A stretch of 64,000 nt of DNA. Origin: Callorhinchus milii (Eukaryota). The stretch spans positions 108,874,001 to 108,938,000 of the forward strand of contig NW_024704742.1 in NCBI RefSeq assembly GCF_018977255.1, given 5' to 3'. Of this stretch, positions 12,540 through 52,730 are shown piece after piece. Made by a program: the position numbers and the translations under genes. The notes beneath the pieces were generated by a model. It was not told the DNA's origin. It worked only from the letters and a program-made list of their open reading frames with translations, and did not search any database. Position 1 is the first letter of the stretch, and every line of letters begins with the position of its first letter.

Positions 12540-15500
12540 ATCATAGAATCATAGAATTGTATTGTAGAATTGTACAGAACAAAAAGAGGCCATTCGGCCC
12601 ATCGAGTCTGTGCCGGCTCTTTGAATAGAGCAATTAAAGTCAATCCCACTTCCCAGCCCTTTCCCTATAACCCTGCAAACCCGTCCTCCTCAAATACCCA
12701 TCCACCGCGTTTTTAAAAGTAGTTATCAAATCGGCCTCGACCACCCTTTCAGGTAATGCGTTCCAGATTTGAACAATTCGCTGCGTGAAAAAAATTCTTC
12801 TCACCTCCCCTCTGCTTCTTTTAGAGACTATTTTGAATCTGTGACCTCAAGTCACCGACACACTCACCAGTGGAAACAGTTTTTCCCTTTCCAACCTATC
12901 AAATCCCCTCATGATTTTGAAGACCTCTATTAGGTCTCCTCGTAACCGTCTCTGCTCCAATGAGAATAATCCCAGCCTCTCTAGCCCTTCCTCATAATCA
13001 AGGTCCCTTATTCCTGGTACCATCCTCGTAAATCTCCTCTGCACCCTTTACAATGCCTTAACATCCTTCCTATAGTGTGGTGCCCAGAACTGGGCACAGT
13101 ATTCTAACTGAGGCCTAACCAGTGTTTTATATAGGTTAATCATAACCTCCTGACTCTTGTACTCTATGCCCCTATTTATAAAGCCTAGAATCCCATTTGC
13201 CCTTTTTACAGCCTTATCTACCTGTCCTGCCACCTTCAAGGATTCATTTACCTGCACCCTTCGGTCTCTCTGTTCTTTTACCCCCCTTAAGATTGTATTA
13301 CCAGCCTGTATTGCCTCCCCTCATTCTTTCTACCAAAATGCATTACTTCACATTTCTCCACATTGAAACTCATCTGCCATGTGTCTGCCCATTTTACCAT
13401 TCTGTCTATGTCTTCCTGCAGTTGGCTCCTATCCTTCCCACTGTTTACCACACCACCTAACTTTGTGTCGTCCGCAAACTTGGAAATGGTGCTTGCTATA
13501 CCCAAGTCCAGATCATTTATGTATATTGAGAAGAGCAGTTGTCCTAATACCGATCCCTGGGGGACGCCACTGTACACTTCCCTCCAATCAAAAAAGCAGC
13601 CGTTCACCACCACTCTCTGGTTTCTGTCTTCCAAACAGTTCTGGATCCATGCTGCCACTGTCCCTTTTATACCATGGGCTTCTATCTTTCTTACAAGTCT
13701 TTCATGTGGCACTTTGTCAAATGCCTTTTGAAACTCCATATAAACTACATCAACTGCATTACCTTTATCTACCCTCTCCGTTACCTCATCGAAAAATTCT
13801 ATTAGATTTGTTAGACAAGATTTGCCTTCAACAAATCTGTGCTGGCTGTCCCTAATTAACCCATAATCTAAGTGAAGATTTATTCTGTCCCGGATTATAG
13901 TCTCCAGGAGTTTTTTCACTACTGATGTTAGGCTGACTGGCCTGTAGTTCCCAGGTTTGTCCTTCTGTCGTTTTTTGTACAGGGGAGTCATATTGGCCAC
14001 TCTCCAGTCCTCTGGCACCACTCCTGTGTCCAACGAAGATTGAAAAATTGAGGCCAAAGCCTCCACTATTTGTACCCGTGCCTCCCATAGTAACCTTGGT
14101 TGCATTCCGTCTGGACCAGGCGACTTATCTACCTTCAGCGCAGTCAACCTTTTCAGTACTTCCTCTTTGTTTATACTTATCCTATCCATTTCCTCTACCC
14201 TCTTCTCTGATACTGCGGCATTTGGTGCATCCACTTTCTTTGTGAAGACAGATGCAAAGTACTCATTCAGCACATCAGCCATGCCCTCTGCCTCCACAAT
14301 AAGATTTCTCCCTTGGTCCTTAATTGGCCCCACCCTCCCTTTGACTAATCTTTTTTTCCTTGATATGTTTGTAAAATATTTTAGAATTCCCTTTAATGTT
14401 ACGCGCTAACATTTTTTTGTATAATCTTTTTGCCCCTCTTATTTCCTTTTTCAAACCTCTTCTGCACTTCTTATATTCGATTTGGTTGTCTTCTGTATCT
14501 TGGGTTGGACATTTGTCATATGCCTCCTTTTTCTGCTGCATTTTAGATACAATTACTTTCGTCATCCATGGAGGTTTGGAAGCCCTACTTTTCCCTTTTG
14601 TGGGAATGTATCTATTTTGTCCCTGAACTATCTCATCCTTGAAGACTTCCCACTGCTCTTCAGTTGTTTTACCTGCCAATCTTTCTTTCCAGTCCACCTT
14701 GGCTAGCTTCCTTTTTAGCTCACTGAAATTTGCCCTCTTCCAGTTGAATATCTTTACCTTAGATGGTTCCTTGTCTCTTTCCATATGTACTTTGAATCTA
14801 ATGATGTTATGATCACTATTACCCAGATGCTCTCCCACTGAAACCTGCTCCACTTGTGCTACTTCATTCCCCAGAACTAGATCTAGCACTGCTTCCTTCC
14901 TTGTTGGGATGGAAACGTACTGATCAAGAAAGTTGTCCTGTATGCATTTTAGGAATATTTCCCCCTCCTTGCCCTTTGTGCTGTTGTTTTGCCAGTCTTT
15001 GTTGGGATAATTAAAGTCCCCCATTATCACGACTCTATTGGCCTTGCATCTGTCTGAGATCTGCTTGCAGATCTGCTCATCTATTTCCATTCCACTATTT
15101 GGTGGTCTATAGTATACCCCTATCAGCGTAACAGCTCCTTTTTTGTTCCTGAACTCTAACCGGATATATTCCGTTTTGGGGCCCTCCAGCACCTCGACCC
15201 TTTCCACGTTTATAACCGTATCTTTGATTAATATTGCCACAACCCCTCCTTTTTTTCCTTCCCTATCTCTCCTGAATGCATTGTAGCCAGGAATATTCAG
15301 ATCCCATTCCTGTCCTTGCTTGAGCCAAGTCTCTGTTACTGCTACTACATCGTATCTCCCTATGACCACTTGAGCCTGCAGCTCACCAATCTTGTTTGCT
15401 AAACTCCGTGCATTTAGGCACATGCACTCCAAGACCGACTTGACCTGCTCTGCGCTGCCCCCTGTTTTATTTCTCCATTTTCTAGCTCTTCGTTTTTTGC

Positions 15501-15620
15501 ATTCCCTTCCCCCCTCAAAACTAGTTTAAACCCTCCCCAACAGCATTAGATAGCCTGTCTGCAAGCACATTCGCCCCAGCCCTGTTTAGGTGCAACCCAT
15601 CCATATGATACAGGTCCCAA
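12540..15620 (-). mobile_element. CR1 LINE, 5'-truncated: end of ORF1 (SGNH-esterase), near-complete ORF2 (APE + RT) with a few frameshifts, 3' tail
   Basis: ORF1 end DLYHMDGLHLNRAGANVL..GEGLN* (~15525-15617); APE CLNARSL/VTETWL/GVYYRPP/MGDFNYP/NSDHNII (15432-14320); RT NYRPVSLTS/AFDKVPH/GVPQGSVLG/KFADDTK (14333-13287); (TTCTATGA)n-type tail at 12540. Confidence 0.97.
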
Positions 15621-19737: not shown

Positions 19738-20309
19738 TTCTTGAGGCAGAAAGTGAAATGATGTCTCACATTGCCTCCAGTAGAGTTACCATTAATTATG
19801 TCTCCGGTCAGGAGCTAGACAAAGAGTACAGGCTAGCAATGTGGGCTTAGAATTATGAAGTTGCAAGATATGATTTTAGAAACCATTGCATCTCTGAGGG
19901 GGTCATACTGAAGCAGTTGTATTTGTTTTACTGCCAATTCTTTGGATTCTGCCCCACAGTGTAAACTGGATGAATCCACATCCTGCAGCCTTGTGGTGCT
20001 GAGAATGTACTTGTATGGTCCAAATGAGAAGCAGAGTATCTATACTTGCCAAATCAAAATAATGCAATACAAGATGCAATGCAACATAACATGGCTTATA
20101 ATTGGCTATGAATTGAAATATAAGCCACCACATTTAGTTACCTATTTATAACATTTGGATTCTTGCCAATTTGATACCCTCTCGCTCTCATGGACACCGA
20201 ATGCCCTCCAGTGTACCTTACTCAAGTGATGTGGATCAGAGGGAAAGAGTATGGTTAAAGAGAGAATAGAAATAAGTATGATGAAGAGCAAGCCATGTAG
20301 AGTGTATAT

Positions 20310-20590
20310 AATAATAATGCTAATAAACCTTGCATTTGACATAGCGCTTTTCATGTCTTCGAGATGTCTCAAAGCGCTTCACAGAATATACTGTAAAGTG
20401 AATTGACTGTACATTTTAGGATGAAATGCAGCAGCCAATTGTGCACAGCAGTGTCCCACAAACAGTTGTGGATTAAAGTGACCAATTTATTATTATTTTT
20501 TTCTTGAAGGATTATTATCAGGCGTGTAGAATAAGGAAACTTGCCCAAGGTTTCGCCCTGCCGGGAATCAAACTCATGTTTCCGTGGCTT
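20310..20590 (-). mobile_element. tRNA-derived SINE (subfamily B-type tail)
   Basis: cttgcatttgacatagcgcttttcatgtcttcgag...acagcagtgtcccacaaacag...aaggaaacttgcccaagg. Confidence 0.85.
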
Positions 20591-21833
20591 TGCCACACTA
20601 ATATTAATGTTTCTGTCAGAGATGCAGTGCATGAGCTGAAATTTTACAAAAATCAATGTGCCCTCAAACACCAGAATTGCTGCAGACATCCTGGCAGGCA
20701 AAGAGTTAAGATTTGAGCTTGTGGAGAATCAACCCAAATCCAGTTATTGATGAGTCTTAATTTTCCACATGGTAGGTTTTGGGAATGTGATTTACTGATC
20801 CTTTAATGTTTCCACCCAATCCTTCCTATATTCGCAGTATTTTATCAAGTAAGTACATTTTCATAAGAAAGATAGATGGCAGATAGACATATAGAAGATA
20901 ATTGTAAGATTGCTGCAGGACTCACCTTTCCAGTTTTTACAAGTTGGAGATGGCACGCAATACTTTTTCTGAAACATCTTAATTTTTAGAAAGGAATACA
21001 TTACGCAGTCACTGCGTTTTACAGGAAACTCTGAAGTGCTTTGAGACGTATGGACCAGTGAACTGGCCTCAGCAATTCTTTCTGGAAACCTAGTTGAGTC
21101 ATTACCTACCCTTTAGGTGAAGAAAAATTTCCTGGTATCTGTCCTGAAATTGTCTTTTGCAACTCTAAATCTATAAGCCCTTGTTCTATTGTCTTGGTGT
21201 ATCCTAAATTATTGTTGAGGATTTACATTTTCAATTCCACTGAAAATGTTATACATTTCACATCCATGCCTTGACCTGTTCAGCTTTCCGTCAGTCATCT
21301 TGACCCCATCCCTCTTGAATCCAAACCCCACTTCAGGTGCAAACTCTCAACTGTTCAGTGCCTTGGGAAATCCTCCCGATGTGAGAGCGCTATATAAATG
21401 CAATTTGTTGTTGTCATATATCTCTGTAAGGTTTCCCTTGAGACATCTTCTCTCAAGACTGAAGAACCTTACTTTGTCAAATCGTTACTCATAACTCATT
21501 CCTCTAACACCGGGGTTCATGCTCATTGATCTGCTCAGGCACTGCCTCTAGGGCCAGGGCAGCCTCCTTATGTCACAGGGATTATATGGCTTGAGTATGA
21601 TTTCTGCAGATCTAAACTCAACTGATTTAGTAATATAGCACAAATATCTCATCCAAAGAATAGTACTTCTGACAACATAGCATTCAGCTAGTACTGCACT
21701 TGAGTGTTTGCTTGGACTGTAAATTTAACTCTTGACATGGATACCAAACCATGATTTGGGACTTGATCTCACAACCATTAGAGGGAAGAGTTCTATGCTA
21801 AGCCAAATTGCCTACCTCTTTTCACAAAGGTGA

Positions 21834-22277
21834 ATCATAGAATCATAGAAATACACAGCACAGAAGGAGGCCATTCGGCCCATCGTGTCTGTGCTGGCTC
21901 ATTTAAACGAGCTATCCAAATCAATCCCGCTCCCCTGTGCTCTCTGCATAGCTCTGCAAATTTGTTCTCTCCAAATAATTATCTACTTCTCTCTTAAAAG
22001 TTATCAAATCATCTTCCACCACCCTTTCAGACAATGCATTCCAGATCCGAACAACTCGCAGTATGAAAAGATTTCTCCTCACCTCCCCTCTGTTTCTTGG
22101 TTTACCAACCCACCCTCCAGTGGAAATAGTTTCTCCTTGTTCACCCTATCAAATCCCCTCATAATTTTGAAAATTTCTATTAAGTCTCCTCCTAAACCTG
22201 CTCCAAGGAGAATAATCCTAGCTTCTCTAGCCTCTCCTGATAACTGAAGTCCCTCAATCCTGGTACCATCCTGGTAA
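21834..22277 (-). mobile_element. CR1 LINE 3' fragment
   Basis: aatcatagaatcatagaa tail; GDLIEIFKIMRGFDRVNKEKLFPL. Confidence 0.9.
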
Positions 22278-24065
22278 AGGATCCTGGTGAAGCTGAAGAA
22301 ATAAAAAATAAAAACATTTGCAACATTAAAGGAATTTAACACAAGAAAGTGTGGAACACATGATAGCTTTATGTCCAAAAGCCCTGTTGCTTCCAAAGTT
22401 TTCAAGTGTAACATATCCTATTCTGGATTCTACCCGATTTATTTAATCTCTTGAGTAAGGTTGAAAACCACAAATAAAGTGTCCAGGTCGTTAAAGCTTT
22501 GCAAAATGTCTCTTTAACCCCCAAAGGTAAAATTTCATTGAACATTACAATCTACTTATTTAACCATGCCAAACAGCTTGTTCAATGGAATTGTGTTCTG
22601 GGAAAAATTTGATCATCTTTGTTTATACTTAACTTTGTAACCTTCAATTTGTCACAATTCCAGCCATAGGCTGTGTATATTTAGTGAAATGTATCCCTGG
22701 AACCTGAGATTATGTAGCAGAAAAAAACAAATTTCATAGCAATTGGAGATAATAGTTTGCTGTCCACAGTATTTATAAAGGAAACCATGTATTTGAAACA
22801 CTCTGTTTGAAATAGAGGTAAGAATTTTACCAGGATTTCTGACATGTTCATAATAAGTTATTTATGCCACAATAAGTTATTTATGCCACAAATATAATTA
22901 CAATTAGAGTGTTTCACAATTTAACCTTATATATTGACTTTCAGGTTTGTACTGCCATACATTGAAGGAGGGGAGGAAGCAACTCGGAGGGACTCGGAGG
23001 AATAGACCAATGGTTGGGTGGATAGAATATTCTGCTGTCTCGATGCATTCAAAAATATTGTTCTGGGTTTACTTTCTCAATCCCATTCTCAATCTCAATC
23101 AAACTTTGTCTGGCAAGTCAATCTATACTAGAAACAGACAAAGAACTGAGTCCTAACAAATAAAATGATCTTTCTACAAACTCATGCTTAACTAGCGGAA
23201 AATCAATTCTGCACAGTGCACGTTTTTAATTGTTTTTTTTCTTTTCAAATCTTAGTGATGGATAAAAGACGTCTCCTTGTGTTTCTGATTTCATGTCTAA
23301 TCATCATATGTAAGTAACACCATATGATCCTTTTGTAATTTGCTTGTTTTAGAGGATTCCTACTACTCATTTCAGTTGTTTTCATGCTATATCTAAATAA
23401 AGTTGCTAATATAAAAAACATTGAATATAATTTTAAATTCAATGTTAAATTCACTGAGAAATGTGATTGAATAGAAATGAAGCAAACTGATAGTGTTGTG
23501 CTACACTTTTTTATGATTACAACTAAATACATATTTACCTTCCAATTTACTCTCCTCTCCCGTAGATGTTGGGGTATGGGTCCCTGGGCATATTTATAAA
23601 GATGGAGTCATTTTCATTTGTAATTTAGTTTTAAAAGTGGCAGCTATTTTTAAATGAGTATCAACTTGACAGTTACAGCTATTTTTATTAATATTTTTTG
23701 TCAGCTGGATGTCTGACACATGCAGAAACCCATCACCATGCTTAAGAGAAACCAAATCCAATGAGAGTTCCATGCATCCCATGGAAATCCCAGTGTTTGG
23801 AATAGAATATGCACTTTCTCCCTGGAGCGACACACCCTATTAACCTTAATAGTCTCCGGAATTATAGCACCACCCTACCTGTTAGGGCTTTGGCTTCCAG
23901 AGTTAACAAAAGCTGAGTGGTAAGAATCCCTATTCCCAGTGACTGATCTGGACCTCCAAATCCTCCCAGTGGGCCAGGCTGGCACATCTGTCATCAGCAG
24001 TGCCCTGGCATAGTGTGGATGACAAGACTAGAGGGATGACGAGATTCTGACATTCTACTGCCAAG

Positions 24066-24252
24066 CATAAGAACATAAGAACATAAGAACATAAGAACAT
24101 AAGAAATAGGAGCAGGAGTAGGCCATTCGGGCCCTTGAGCCTGCCACACCACTTAATACGATCGTGACTGATTTACTAACCTAATTCCATTTATCCGCCC
24201 TATTCCCATATCCCTTAATCCCTTTAGTTTTAAAAATCTATCGATCTCAGCA
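24066..24252 (-). mobile_element. CR1-type 3' end with (CATAAGAA)5 microsatellite tail
   Basis: cataagaa x5 followed by ataggagcaggagtaggccattcgg. Confidence 0.8.
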
Positions 24253-24392
24253 TATTACTTTGGAGCCAACTGAACTCCAAGGAGACCCCACTTATCTCCC
24301 CCCACCCCCACCCCTTTCCATGAGGTCATTTAACATCTGACAAGTGCAGGTTTGAGTCTTCATTAGGTGGATGGCAGGACCAGGAACTCCTT

Positions 24393-24709
24393 ATAATAAT
24401 AATAATCCTTGCATTTGATATAGCGCTTTTCACATCGGGAGGACATCCCAAAGTGCTTCACAGAACACACTGTAAAGTGAATTGACTGTATATTTGTGGG
24501 CGAACGCAGCAGCCAATTGCGCACATCAATGTCCCACAAACAGTCGTAGATTGAAAATGACCAATTTAATTATTGTTTTTGGTTTTTGGAGGGATTATTA
24601 TTAGGCGTGTGGAGTAAGGAAACTTGCCCAAGGTTTCGCCCTACCTGGAATTGAACTCAGGTCTCTCACTTGCAAAGCGAGTACTCTAACCACTGAGCTA
24701 CAGAACTCC
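24393..24709 (-). mobile_element. tRNA-Ala-derived SINE subfamily A (full length)
   Basis: Reverse complement of the 4295 element; flanked by GAACTCCTT at 24384-24392 and 24703-24711 (candidate TSD overlapping the SINE 5' end). Confidence 0.92.
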
Positions 24710-25008
24710 TTGACAGTTTCCTGGTCAGTAGCTCAGCATGAAATGCGTGAGAACATCTTCCTGCCCTCAGCTCAGAAACACGTCCAATTCCCACTGAGCA
24801 ATGGTTCCACCAATTGGAAGTGAGTAGGTGGATTCTAAGCAAACTCAAACGCCAGATAATGCCTTCCAACAGCCTTCCCAAGCCTCAGATTTTCTTTATC
24901 AGCTATTTGACAGATTTCTGTCTTCAGCATGATGGAAGGACCTTTACAAGGTAGTTTGAGACATGCCAGCCACTTTGATGTTCTCATGAGTATTATTATC
25001 ATTTGCAG

Positions 25009-25892
25009 ATTATTTGAGAAAGAATTCAAAGCAGAAAAGTTCTAAACCAAAACAGAAAAAAGTGCCACAACCACAAAGGGAAGAGTCAACATTTCTGCCG
25101 AATGCCACTTATTGGGGAGCCCCTATCATATGGGAGAAAACTTTTCAACCAAGCCTGAATCGTGAACAGCTCAAAACGACAGCTTTTTCGATTGGGCTTA
25201 CAGTGTTTGCTATCGGAACATATAAGCAATACCTGTACAACTTTGTACAATCTGCTGAAAAATATTTTATGACTGGATACTTTGTGACTTATTACATCCT
25301 CACTGATAATCTAGATGTCCTCCCTTCTGTGAAATTAGGGACCGGCAGAGAAATCAAGCCATTTTACATAGCTGAAAAGCCAGGCTGGATTCATCTATGG
25401 AAAGCTAGAACGTCTCTCTTGAGTAGCGTGATTAAAGAACTCATTCAAAATGAAGTGCAATATGTATTCTGCATGGATGTTGATCAAATATTTATGAATA
25501 ATGTGGGGTCTGAGATTTTAGGGGACCTTGTTGCAACTTTGCACCCTGACTTCTATGATGCCCCAAAGAACGTGTATCCATATGAACAAACTTCTGTTTC
25601 GAAAGCGTATGTTGATGGATTGGAAGGTGATTATTACTACACTTCAGAGCTCTATGGTGGAAAATGCAATGATGTGTATGAGTTAACTCTTACCTGCTCT
25701 CAGTTCATAATTCAGGACATAGAGATTGATTTCACTGCCATTATGTTTGAGGAGAGTTACTTGAACAGATATTTCATCAACACTAAGCCAACCAAAGTAC
25801 TTTCTTCAGAATATAGTTGGCCTGCCCGAAGAGAATCCACGGAATTTGTAGTAAAGAGGATCTTTTCTCTGGAGCGATACATGCCCGTATAA
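25009..25892 (+). CDS. GT6-family (ABO/GBGT1/GGTA1/A3GALT2-like) alpha-1,3-glycosyltransferase, terminal coding exon with stem + complete catalytic domain
   Basis: Intact ~293-codon frame with WGAPIIWE, IGLTVFAIG, SAEKYFM, YYILTD, FCMDVD (DxD), LVATLHP, GDYYY, EESYLN, KPTKVLS.EY. Acceptor-like ttatcatttgcAG at 25008; stop TAA 25890-25892; no in-frame ATG or TM segment, so upstream exon(s) are expected. Confidence 0.93.
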
Positions 25893-26214
25893 AGAAATGT
25901 GTGTTTTTCCATCATGCAAAATATGGAAAAAAGTTTTTTTTTTAGAAATTACTAAGTTATAAAAGAAGGAGACTATATTTTAAGAATATTCCATTCCAGA
26001 GTTTATGTTTAGGTCATAGAGTTCAAAGGTGTCCAAAAGCACAGTTATAAAGATAGGAGATGTAACTTCAATAGAGAAGCAAGTACCAAAACAGGCTCAG
26101 AGGCCCCAAATGGCCACCAGCTGCTTTGTAATATTTATGTTCTTGCTTTCCACAATCCTTATGAAAACTATTAGTGTTATACTGCGTTATTACAGTAGTG
26201 TGTCTTCACTTTGA

Positions 26215-26220
26215 AATAAA
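26215..26220 (+). terminator. Candidate polyadenylation signal of the GT6 gene
   Basis: AATAAA ~320 nt after the stop codon, in AT-rich sequence. Confidence 0.4.
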
Positions 26221-28429
26221 AGCTGCTTAATATTTAGAAATTTAAAAAATTACAAGTTTAGTATTAAAATTGCAAAATATATTTATCATTTAATATAAAT
26301 ATCAAAAATGGATAGTTAATCTACTGTGAGAATAGTAACCAGTGTTGTTTTCTTGCTTGCATTGGACTAATTTTAGACTTAAAATACAGAACATCTAAAA
26401 GCTCTTCACACCCTATAGTACTTGCAAACAACAAGAGCACAGGTCAAATGATAGCACACAAGACTGTGTTAAATGTGCCCTATTTATTACATTGAATTGA
26501 CCACAGATAAAACTTCTTAAGGCTGTCCAAAATGGTAACATCTGAGCTTAAGGATCTTGGCCTCCCATTTCTCTCTGGAGCTTCAGTATTGTACTGGGAC
26601 TAGCCTCAGCCCCTGGATTATGGGATGGGAAAATTTGCAAGTCTTGATCACAATCCAATGATTTTTGCTTGAAAGTGCGTGTGTAAATATTGATGAGAAC
26701 AGGATCGACTTTGGCTATATAATGTGACAACAGCATAACATACTTTTATATCTGAAAAATGAATCTTGAAAGTACCACATCTTTCCCAGTGACATAGAAC
26801 CACAGTGTAACACATCAGGGACGAGTGCCTTCAGGAAAGGAGAGACACAGAAAAAATAAGGCATACAATTATGTTGAAGAAAAACACTCCCATCCTATTA
26901 ACATCGGAAATTAATAGAAAGTTGTCAACCCATTTTGAAATATAATTTCATATTTTTCAACTATTTATAACTATAACAGTGTTAATATGGAATACTATAA
27001 CAACAACAACAAGATTGCATTTGTATAGTGCCTTTCACATTGGGAGGACGTCCCAAGGCGCTGGGATGTCAAGAATAGTCAAGAAATGGAATAGAAAGAA
27101 TGCAGAATTAGTCTCAAGAAATCTACTGGATGCAAAATTAGTCGAGCTGTGTCCATTATTTTGAGCAAAGACAAATTGAAAAAGATATAACCAACCTTCT
27201 GACAATCTTCAATGTATGACCCAATGCCCCAAATTGCTTAGAAACACATCATGGAGATTATTCCTTTGAATATGGCGCGTGACAATTTCTGGCGGTTTCC
27301 TCCCCAAACCAAGAAAGGTTTTCCAAACAGTTTATCATCAAATGTGGAATAGTACTAGCAGAGAGGGAAATAAGAGACATCCAGTCGAGCTGCTAAATGT
27401 AGCCAGCTGCTGATTTTTTAAATAAATGTGGCAGATGCTTCCCTCCAATTATTAGGAATCTACTTGGCTGTATTCCTAATCTGCTGCGAACAAAACTCTA
27501 ATTTAGGGAATAGAGGTAACAATANTTTTTTAATTAGCCAATGTGATGTGAGGTCTGCATTTTAAATCCTTTTTTACACTGGAAAATGAGGATTTGAGGT
27601 AGTGATTTCAGCAACCTCACCCTAATTAACCATAATGTGTCATATCAATGAAAAGCCACTATGAGAATAATAATAGTAATCCTTGCTTTTGATACTTTTC
27701 ATATCAGGAAGATGTCTCAAAGCGTTTCATAGGATTTAGTATAAGGTATATTGATTGCATAATTTGTAGACATTATTACTGATGTAGTGACCAGCAGAAC
27801 GTAGATTACCGAGAGAAAGTTTGAGTGTTATCATTTATGCCCACCCAAACATAGTGTCGTAATGAGAAAAATAGTTCCATATCTTTTATATTCTTTGTTT
27901 GGATCAACTATTTTTTATTGTGTTTAGGTATCACCACTATGAACTCAGTGTAATTGCTTTCACTTGGTTACATAATTGATCATTTCAATCAAAGTAAATG
28001 ATACTGCATGAATTCTGCTTAGTTCCACAAAATTTGAATTAGCTGGAAAATGCTGTAATAGTTCTGAGGAAAAATTAATAAAATTTTTCAGAAAAAGGCT
28101 TTGCAATTGGTGATGATGAGCTTTTAGCTATGTTGCTGGTGGGTGCAATAGTGAGGAAGAAGAGAAGTCTGTGAGAGACGATGGTATCCATAATGCTCAA
28201 CACAAAGCCACAAATCAGTGCTTCTGTCATTTCAAGAGGTATTGCATTAGCTCACTCTGAATTAAGTCGATATCCTTTGAAGCACGACTGAATTTACCAC
28301 AATGTGATTGGTAACAACAATGGCATCATAGACATTTTTGGACAACCGTTGGATCCAATAATTTTGTGGTGAGTGTAAAATTCCTCCCTCATCCTCAGCA
28401 CAACGATTGTGAACCAAGGTGTCAGCACT

Positions 28430-30869: not shown

Positions 30870-31985
30870 TGCAACAACAGCAACTTGTATTTATATAGTG
30901 CCCTTCACGCGGAGTAGTGTGTCACAGTGCTTAACAGTGGCAGAGCTTGACCCCAAACTACGGAGAGAGGAGGGTGATCATAGGCATGATCAAAGAGGAA
31001 GCTCTTTTTATGTGATCTGAAAACAGGCAACGAGGAGGCAAGATGGAGGGATTGAGGCAGAGAGTTCCATAGTTTGGGGGTGTGGTGGCTGAAGCACGGC
31101 CGCTGATGGTGAGGGATGTACAGGAGGCCAGAGCCAGATTAGCAAAGGGGGCAGGTATCAACAACAACAACAAAATTACATTTATAGAGCCCCCTTCACG
31201 TCGGGAGGACGTCCCAAGGCGCTGAATGGGGTGTAAGTCGGTCGGAGAGGTAGGGTGTGCCAGGGATAATTTAAATGTGAATGTGAGCATCTTGAAATCA
31301 ACCCGTTTTGTAATAGGGCAAATGCTGTGATGATGGGGGTACAGATTTTATAATAATAATAATAATAATCCTTGCATTTGATATAGCGCTTTTCACGTCG
31401 GGAGGACGTCCCAAAGCGCTTCACAGAACACACTGTAAAGTGAATTGACTGTATATTTGTGGGCGAACGCGGCAGCCAATTGCGCACAGCAATGTCCCAC
31501 AAACAGTCGTAGATTGAAAATGACCAATTTAATTATTGTTTTTAGTTTTGGAGGGATTATTATTAGGCGTGTGGAGTAAGGAAACTTGCCCAAGGTTTCA
31601 CCCTCTGCCTGGAAATGAACTCAGGTCTCTCACTTGCAAAGCGAGTGCTCTAACCACTGAGCTACAGGTCTCCATTTTGGTGCTGTTGAGGATATGGCCA
31701 GCAGAGTTTTGAATTAATTGGATTTTATGAATGTTGGCCCTGAGGAGATCAGTGAGGAGGGCATTGGACTATCGAGGTGGGAGGTGACAAATGCATGGAT
31801 AATGGTTTCAGCTGCATTGGGTGTGAGGTATGGTCGGAGGCTGGCAATGTGGCGGAGGTAGAGCAATACAGTGCTGGTCAGGGACCGGATGTGGGAAAGG
31901 AGGGAAAGCTGGGGATCCATTCTGCAGTCTCGGTTGTGCTCAGGTTCAGTGAATCTGAGGGATAGACCGAGGAGTTCAGGTGAGG
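30870..31985 (-). mobile_element. L2 fragment with nested L2 tail (~31160-31230) and SINE (31350-31673)
   Basis: DPQLSLLSHIRSLT, AAETIIHAFVTSHLD; two (AAC)n tails. Confidence 0.8.
31350..31673 (-). mobile_element. tRNA-Ala-derived SINE subfamily A (full length)
   Basis: Near-identical to the 4295/24393 copies; ATTTT duplicated at 31345-31349 and 31674-31678 (candidate 5-bp TSD). Confidence 0.93.
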
Positions 31986-51959: not shown

Positions 51960-52590
51960 ACACAGGGTGTGAGAACGCGTGACGCGTCACACCGGCTCAT
52001 TTGCATATTTTAAAAAACGTGACGTCACGGGGACTTCGGACCCAATTGCCATGGAGGACTGGTGTTGGGGGAGGGGGGGGGGAGAGTGCGCCGAGCGGCC
52101 AATCAGCATGTTTCAGAGCCCAGCCGACAGCGTGCGTCACGCACCACCCGGAAAACCCGCCCCCTTCCCTCCGTCCGCCGCGGAGATTCGGATCCGAAAC
52201 AGTCACGTGCTCACGGCGACCCTCCTGCCAACGGCGCTCGGCCGTTGAGCGGCACGCGGGCGGAGTGATTGACGTGGCCACAGACCAGTCGGAGCGCGGT
52301 GGCTGGCGGACGGCCCGTGCCGTGGGCGAAGAGAATCGAAGGCGGGCCAATGGGAAGGGTCGGGAGGCGGCGAGCGGAGGCGGGATGCGGTTTCTCGGAC
52401 AAGTTGGATGTCAGTCAGTCGTCAGTCGGTCAGTCGTATGCCCCACAGTTACCCTCTTCGGTCGCCCTGGCGGTTGTTGCCTCAGAGGCTCGGGGAGACA
52501 GGAGAGCGCGAGAGGGGGGCGGGTGAGGCAGAGAGAGGCGACCATGAGTGGGACGTCGGACTGATCGATGCCGGAGGGGCCAGTTCAAGA
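51960..52590 (+). promoter_or_regulatory. CpG-island promoter and 5' leader of the ELL-family gene
   Basis: Sharp rise in GC and CpG; octamer ATTTGCAT 51999-52006, CRE TGACGTCA 52020-52027, CCAAT 52099 and 52347, CCGGAA 52148, GTCACGTG 52202, TGACGTGG 52270, repeated TCAGT (Inr-like) 52410-52436, GC box ~52516, YY1-type CAAGATGGCGGC over the ATG. Confidence 0.85.
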
Positions 52591-52730
52591 TGGCGGCGGC
52601 GCTCGCTGAGGATCAACGGTACGGGCTGTCCTGTGGCAGAGCGAGTGGGGGCCCCGGCAGAGTCACCGTCTTTCACGTCAAATTGACAGAGACAGCCTTC
52701 CGAGCGCTGGAAGCCTTTCAACATTCAAAG
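52590..52730 (+). CDS. ELL2: RNA polymerase II elongation factor ELL family (most similar to ELL2), coding exon 1
   Basis: Strong Kozak aagATGg; 47 codons [47 protein letters not shown], resembling ELL2 (QRYGLSCGR...[19 protein letters not shown]); phase-0 donor AAG|GTGGGG at the expected position. ELL versus ELL2 is not certain; exon 2 not found in the window. Confidence 0.85.

Follow-up and report, generated by a model that had tools for sequence, protein, structure and literature searches.

An ancient lineage of vertebrate GT6 glycosyltransferases with a conserved T/S-S-E sugar-pocket signature, represented in Callorhinchus milii

Introduction

The stretch of Callorhinchus milii DNA analysed here (the window; 64,000 nucleotides) encodes a true and intact member of the GT6 glycosyltransferase family, which lies outside GBGT1, ABO and GGTA1/A3GALT2 by the motifs that define these. 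It belongs to a clade, named here the TSE clade after its residues at positions 266-268 (ABO numbering is used throughout), that, judging from its tree, arose no later than the lamprey-gnathostome split. From the pattern of conserved residues, we give a probability of about 0.5 to the reading that these proteins would be active Mn/UDP-dependent retaining Golgi transferases, with a donor that is not GalNAc and probably not Gal, and with a non-canonical acceptor.

The gene, its exons, and its neighbours

The gene, which carries the name 'GBGT1-like' in the databases, is intact and has two coding exons (Table 1). The window translation has a frame without stop from 24990 to 25892 on the forward strand, its catalytic region is 100% identical to the Callorhinchus milii database entry, and the RefSeq protein XP_042196690 (311 aa) is the exact joint translation of 23258-23309 and 25009-25892, with GT and AG at the intron ends. 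The preliminary description, made from the letters of the stretch, was right about an intact GT6 frame, every motif that it named being in place in one stop-free frame; the gene span that it gave, 25390..25892, takes in the C-terminal part only. The first exon encodes a basic tail followed by a hydrophobic stretch which, judged by eye, would be a type II membrane anchor.

Four runs were mapped to 20000-27400, among which X1, X2, and X3, all from one study, are RNA by guess only. Contigs from X1 and X2 are placed from exactly 25009 and through the stop with zero differences, and the 161 and 105 letters that they carry ahead of this position place elsewhere, whereas the X6 contig is unbroken from 24788 to 26404, that is, across the exon acceptor. 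By this comparison, the transcript appears to be spliced. The joint of 23309 to 25009 is not among the joints listed for the mapped runs, and a search of the window for an extra upstream coding exon, such as that of coelacanth isoform X1, returned none (best score 15). The UniRef model A0A4W3JPH5, with another first exon and another tail, was rejected, since its first exon is a repeat with several copies in the window and the X1 and X2 contigs reach the window's stop. The start of this model corresponds to a high-copy repeat at 24550-24573 and 31513-31536, and the RefSeq anchor exon is likely the correct one.

A single exon carries the catalytic domain in full, with no intron at the place of the one between exons 6 and 7 of ABO. 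The domain likewise lies in a single open reading frame in the teleost members P0098, P0075, and P0060, as predicted from contigs of up to 23.8 kb. The intron may thus be missing throughout the clade, through either a retrocopy origin or the ancestral state.

The first coding exon of a separate ELL-family gene, probably ELL2 by its motif, follows on this strand some 27 kb further downstream, which confirms a neighbour of this family, the preliminary description having named ELL2. This exon is the only neighbour identified in the window, a motif search for others having returned none, and it is likewise all that the 64 kb offer with regard to the GBGT1-type linkage to RALGDS-CEL-GTF3C5. The window also holds a LINE-type element at 13287-15525 on the reverse strand, recognisable by eye from two frames that resemble an endonuclease (401 aa) and a reverse transcriptase (372 aa), and numerous shorter LINE and SINE remnants throughout.

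Table 1. Features of the GT6 gene and its neighbour in the window (positions counted from the first letter of the window)
Feature	Position	Strand	Remarks
Anchor coding exon	23256..23309	+	ATG at 23258; exon acceptor just 5'; GT donor at 23310; residues 1-17 of XP_042196690
Catalytic exon	25009..25892	+	Stem, whole GT6 catalytic domain, and stop in one large exon
Tyr89	25221..25223	+	ABO Tyr126; 164/164 clade sequences
Mobile internal loop	25374..25409	+	New invariant Glu (177) and Leu (184); Trp181 and Arg188 retained; Ser185 released
DVD metal motif	25476..25484	+	ABO 211-213; both Asp 164/164
LHPD	25539..25550	+	His233 in 163/164; position 235 mostly acidic (E 143, D 3 of 164)
T-S-E triad	25641..25649	+	ABO 266-268, G-loop; clade signature; S and E 164/164; T 157, S 7
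MFEESY	25743..25760	+	ABO 300-305; Trp300 released, His301 mostly hydrophobic, Glu302-Glu303 kept, Tyr305
Short C-terminal tail	25857..25892	+	Arg340 kept; Lys346 replaced by Arg; His348/Arg352 lid absent; X1 and X2 contigs reach the stop
3' UTR	25893..26270	+	At least to polyadenylation-signal hexamers at ~26215 and ~26263; may extend further
ELL-family first coding exon	52590..52725 (approximate)	+	Separate gene; Pfam ELL E=1.2e-11

Family, fold, and comparison with characterised GT6 members

The protein matches the Pfam GT6 profile (PF03414) with E=8e-83 and 278 bits against a cut-off of 25, and a search of the ESM Atlas returned GT6 clusters only. Its AlphaFold model (mean pLDDT 91.9, from an alignment of 102 sequences) has GTA as top match, with a TM of 0.96 and an rmsd of 1.2 A, so that the structural comparison with GTA/GTB proposed at the outset bears out the fold. 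Besides the family profile, the GT6 features found are a GT-A fold superposable on GTA, GTB, and alpha3GalT, the DxD and Glu303 in 164 of 164 clade sequences, and the type II anchor. The HMMER alignment to solved ABO structures, which has no gaps near the motifs, places TSE at 266-268, MFEESY on WHDESH, LHPD on LHPG/S, and GWIHLWKAR on RWQDVSMRR, in agreement with the alignment by eye from which this triad and these replacements had been read.

With ABO GTA/GTB, the protein shares about 38% identity, the fold, His233 of LHP, Tyr264, Arg188, and Glu303; contrary to ABO, which has a small residue at 268 and WHDESH, it has Glu268 and a one-exon catalytic domain, and is without Trp300, His301, Ser185, Thr245, Asp326, His348, and Arg352. 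GBGT1, the Forssman synthase, resembles it in the GT6 fold, the DxD, E302-E303-S304, often P245, and the type II topology. However, the GBGT1 triad is GGA, Trp300, Gln301, and Arg352 are absent from the clade, which thus has in common with the WQEESH motif the EES and neither the W nor the Q, and the two form separate clades. The DVDQ motif is shared with GGTA1/A3GALT2 (the HAA group), unlike the HAA triad, LQAW/LHAW, WHDESH, and the Tyr361/Arg365 lid (K-x-Y-x-x-x-R), none of which the clade has.

Phylogeny and distribution

In a maximum-likelihood tree of 40 sequences and 265 columns, the TSE sequences form one clade (support 99.9/100) with a long stem, lamprey branching first, and an inner order close to that of the species tree. 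In the best tree, ABO, GBGT1-like, and HAA proteins group together to the exclusion of this clade (92.9/84), which would make it, likely though not securely, the sister to all characterised GT6 members. AU tests (5000 replicates; the p-values are rough, as the constrained trees came from a fast search that favours rejection) rejected forcing the clade into all GBGT1-like proteins (p=0.037) or with the two tetrapod-type GBGT1 (p=0.0024); placing it beside ABO (p=0.17) or beside the HAA group (p=0.12) was not rejected. An ordinary GBGT1 orthologue is ruled out by motif and tree, and a pseudogene or a private decay by orthologues that are intact from lamprey to teleosts with invariant pocket residues. 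The distinct conserved GT6 subfamily suspected from the single sequence stands, with a T/S-S-E signature in every clade sequence.

A first homologue search gave 242 matches, among the best 120 of which, those listed, were coelacanth (69% identity), sturgeon and paddlefish (63-64%), and reedfish, bowfin, gar, tarpon, eels, and many teleosts (46-56%); their triad is TSE in 119 and SSE in one. The exhaustive search by profile brought in one further member from sea lamprey (FYFTSE, HLDESH) as well as two divergent copies from mudskippers. These two copies (P0190 and P0203) sit on a long branch and have changes at the H-P-E and EES positions, which suggests relaxed or shifted selection in this lineage of gobies. 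A second search with a characin query, for which 120 of 207 matches were listed, returned characins, catfishes, knifefish, and milkfish, with no cypriniform named among them. Altogether, the clade ranges over lamprey, chimaera, coelacanth, bichir, sturgeon, gar, bowfin, and many teleost orders. The preliminary description had proposed looking for orthologues next to ELL2 in sharks, rays, chimaeras, and other vertebrates. Members do occur in lamprey, coelacanth, and ray-finned fishes besides the chimaera; no shark, ray, lungfish, or tetrapod member is among the matches listed in any search. The collection, in which many rows are unnamed, does hold lungfish, caecilian, and frog GT6 of other types, the presence of elasmobranch GT6 in it being unconfirmed. 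None of six candidate short fragments sought in sharks, lungfish, and amphibians passed E 1e-8, a result by which loss is not proven. The cypriniform, elasmobranch, lungfish, and tetrapod absences are thus apparent rather than demonstrated losses, and would explain why the lineage has been neglected.

Several other GT6 sequences have unusual pockets. The amphioxus (Branchiostoma) protein P0206 has the triad TEG, with NVD for DVD and WHEEGY, hence an acidic G-loop with the Glu one position earlier. Near the ABO branch, P0191 (Rhinatrema), P0207 (Sylvia), and P0199 carry QGN with VFEESH, TAS, and TEA, respectively, and we know of no characterisation of any of them. The chordate GT6 P0218/P0367, with GGA and WNEESH, falls, at low support, close to where the vertebrate GT6 group begins.

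Earlier work on the lineage

A fish gene named GT6m8 was reportedly found in fugu, Tetraodon, and medaka by Turcot-Dubois et al. in 2007, and is said to be absent from zebrafish. Tetraodon and medaka members do fall in the TSE clade, for which no cypriniform is named among the matches listed, and whose range is far wider than those three species. GT6m5 to GT6m8 have been described but are uncharacterised (PMC2699481), and the legend to Figure 1 of Yamamoto et al. 2014 (PMC5377540) names a cluster outside ABO/GBGT1 'ABO/GBGT1 Ancient'. We infer that the TSE clade is probably this GT6m8 and/or this cluster.

Yamamoto et al. grafted motifs of annotated genes into human A transferase. The TSE, SSE, YYYTSE, and FYFTSE grafts gave no A or B antigen and YYYTSG was fully A-active (PMC5377540, Table 2), so that Glu268 alone is the switch between the active and the dead YYYTS graft; the FYFTSE of this table is that of the lamprey member of the clade. 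The GGA triad is important in GBGT1 (PMC5278553), and triad effects depend on the scaffold, so that graft results need not transfer (PMC6351642). PMC5571153, PMC5164903, and PMC10460411 added nothing on the clade, and the literature searched, which mostly left out subscription journals, turned up no native member that had been assayed, knocked out, or solved as a structure. Given the published TSE graft and the names GT6m5-m8, the subfamily is better known than the preliminary description implied. The existence of the lineage is not new, having probably been noticed in 2007 and had its triad tested out of context in 2014, whereas its age, its breadth, its invariant rebuilt pocket, and its systematic mislabelling are not in the literature searched.

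A rebuilt pocket

Pocket residues were counted over 164 clade sequences, a teleost-heavy and redundant set. Invariant in all of them are Y126, E177, L184, R188, D211, D213, P245, S267, E268, and E303; close to invariant are position 302 (E 162, D 2), Y305 (162), and Gln214 of DVDQ (159). Other positions have been released: Ser185 (A 120, S 19, G 12, and others), Trp300 (G 119 and others, W not being among the commonest), and His301 (L 137, F 10, Y 8, M 5), as well as D326, H348, and R352. About 10 of the 13 clade-specific conserved residues fall on the internal loop, the G-loop, position 305, and the C-tail. E302 and P245 are no novelty, as they also occur in GBGT1-like proteins (E 10/10, P 6/10). 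Within the internal loop, Trp181 and Arg188 have stayed in place.

The reduced C-terminal tail of the preliminary description is real with regard to the lost His348/Arg352 lid, although Lys346 is kept as Arg in 156 of 164 sequences; lamprey has Ile there and the coelacanth model ends short of this position. Neopterygian members (P0007, P0008, and teleosts) are longer at the C-terminus: in place of the His/Tyr-Arg lid of other GT6, they carry an extension whose two conserved cysteines likely close a disulfide loop; this extension is absent in chimaera, coelacanth, sturgeon, and bichir.

Rates were analysed in 41 clade sequences less than 75% identical (tree length 12.7). Both S267 and E268 fall into the slowest class of rates, and site 300 reaches the 89th percentile. 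Of the 15 contact sites, 8 do not vary, compared with 27 of the 257 other sites (Fisher p=1e-4), the contact list having been compiled from literature and recall after the data were seen. Among 146 further representatives of GT6, 139 of which align at position 268, this residue is Ala in 72, Gly in 43, and Glu in 7, of which four are the TSE clade itself, two are misaligned, and one is independent; Trp300 is found in 116 of 132 aligned representatives without Glu268. Over 22 pocket positions, the clade has a mean net side-chain charge of -5.6, compared with -1.2 for 32 reference GT6.

Donor, acceptor, and alternative explanations

In the reading that we prefer, the protein would be a catalytically active glycosyltransferase, anchored in the Golgi membrane with type II topology, whose GT6 lineage predates the lamprey-gnathostome split and whose sugar pocket has been re-specified. 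The Mn2+ held by the DVD motif would bind the UDP-sugar, with Tyr126, which presumably stacks on the uracil, and the Arg at 346 on the phosphate. Asp211/Arg188 and Glu302 would hold ring hydroxyls, and Glu303 would support front-face retaining transfer, leading to an alpha linkage as in other GT6. The invariant Glu177, Pro179, and Leu184 of the internal loop may replace the missing C-terminal lid in closure. An active transferase is favoured because the binding and catalytic residues are held and new loop residues have become fixed, whereas the decayed GT6 proteins P0226 and P0249 have lost the DxD, Tyr126, and Arg188. These two are GLT6D1-type, presumably, a name given from their tree position as offshoots of the HAA group; like the clade, they have lost Trp300 and His301 and have no known activity, and they have also lost residue 302, which the clade keeps.

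The donor guess comes from alignment to the contacts of GTB rather than from docking, and sequence is a poor guide to the donor specificity of GT-A enzymes (PMC7948508). In GTB, O2/O3 are contacted by Asp211, O3 by Arg188/Gly267/Ala268, O4 by Asp302, and O6 by His301/Trp181, and Ala268 already clashes with the N-acetyl group (PMC4692239). Glu268, standing in place of Gly/Ala by C2/C3 of the donor, would shut out the N-acetyl group, which makes a GalNAc donor unlikely, and would probably hydrogen-bond ring hydroxyls. With the O6 contacts His301 and Ser185 released, a small non-acetylated donor would be the most likely. UDP-xylose would be our lead guess, itself on the unlikely side, with UDP-glucose, its sugar repositioned in the pocket, as a slightly fainter second, and all other donors taken together would weigh about as much as glucose. 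In GTB, a larger residue at Ser185 raises glucose transfer (PMC4202792), and most clade members have Ala185, which counts against glucose. Trp residues bind the acceptor (PMC4202792). The loss of Trp300, together with the acidic pocket, would speak for an acceptor that is not a stacked terminal beta-Gal/GalNAc and may be cationic.

Several observations pull the other way, towards a conserved pseudoenzyme whose donor-sugar site would be occupied by Glu268 and which would bind a metal, a nucleotide, or a glycan without transfer, as a Golgi lectin, a scaffold, or a regulator of some other transferase. Arg268 fills the donor site likewise in a human O allele. Glu268 abolishes the A and B activities in the human scaffold (PMC5377540), even though such outcomes need not carry between scaffolds (PMC6351642). 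K359A, Y361A, V363A, and R365A each abolish the activity of bovine alpha3GalT (PMC13476921), and the equivalents of Y361/R365 are absent from the clade; the coelacanth model, moreover, stops before Lys346. The O6 and acceptor-stacking contacts are released, the pocket is so acidic that a UDP-sugar would be disfavoured, and the combination of Glu268 and a hydrophobic 301 is seen again in one unrelated domain without DxD and Arg188, the sole independent GT6 domain found with Glu268. This is the first GT6 domain of P0294 (1286 aa), a protein in which two GT6 domains are combined with two GT2-like ones; it also has a non-Trp 300 and Tyr305, is without Tyr126, and groups with the second GT6 domain of the same protein, outside the chordate clade. 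Against a pseudoenzyme, DxD, Arg188, Glu303, Tyr126, and His233 are near-invariant from lamprey to teleosts and new invariant pocket residues have been gained, whereas other degenerate GT6 offshoots lose such residues. We therefore regard a pseudoenzyme as unlikely, although it is the alternative to be taken most seriously.

Somewhat more doubtful is that the clade consists of ordinary alpha1,3-Gal (less likely GalNAc) transferases with compensating pocket changes, acting on an acceptor unused by ABO, GBGT1, GGTA1, and iGb3S, for example the core of an O-glycan or a glycolipid of fishes. The donor of every characterised vertebrate GT6 is Gal or GalNAc, the clade has conserved the O2/O3/O4 contacts (Asp211, Arg188, and an acidic residue 302), and the AU tests leave room for a position beside ABO or the HAA group. 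However, Gly or Ala occupies position 268 in 115 of the 139 aligned representatives, the Glu268 grafts lost both A and B activities, and the contacts of His301 and Ser185 have been given up. Dogfish reportedly has extended core 5-like glycans (PMC10532229), and no dogfish protein is among the clade members listed; a core 5 (GalNAc-alpha1,3-GalNAc) synthase is unlikely in any case, as Glu268 should bar the N-acetyl group.

A synthase of the fish Fuc-alpha1,3-GalNAc epitope was ruled out: alpha-fucosides from GDP-beta-L-Fuc require inversion, and the epitope is present in zebrafish, where no clade member is listed. Finally, a different chemistry, in which Glu268 and Glu303 would form a carboxylate pair for nucleotide-sugar or glycoside hydrolysis or for inverting transfer, has no precedent in GT6 to our knowledge. 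It would be in keeping with the open lid, the lost acceptor platform, two glutamates that never vary close to the sugar site, and the repeated retaining/inverting switches among GT-A families (PMC7185993), but position 268 lies by C2/C3 and not above the anomeric carbon (PMC4692239), and we consider it very improbable.

Significance of the lineage

Well over 100 fish proteins among the matches listed are labelled as Forssman synthase-like without having its motif or belonging to its clade, and such a label does not amount to a function. Returning to an active transferase, we tentatively propose that the oldest-branching vertebrate GT6 lineage may move a sugar other than Gal or GalNAc, for instance xylose or glucose, onto an unrecognised and possibly cationic acceptor. 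Lampreys, chimaeras, coelacanth, and most ray-finned fishes would then have this glycan in common, and tetrapods, elasmobranchs, and zebrafish would have lost it. If this were true, the activity would be the first of its kind among vertebrate GT6, and its product a fish glycan epitope not seen before. An invariant rebuilt pocket kept since early vertebrates would point to a glycan or a Golgi function that work on human, mouse, frog, and zebrafish would miss, and the lineage bears on the mucosal glycans of fishes and on how donor specificity changes in GT-A enzymes.
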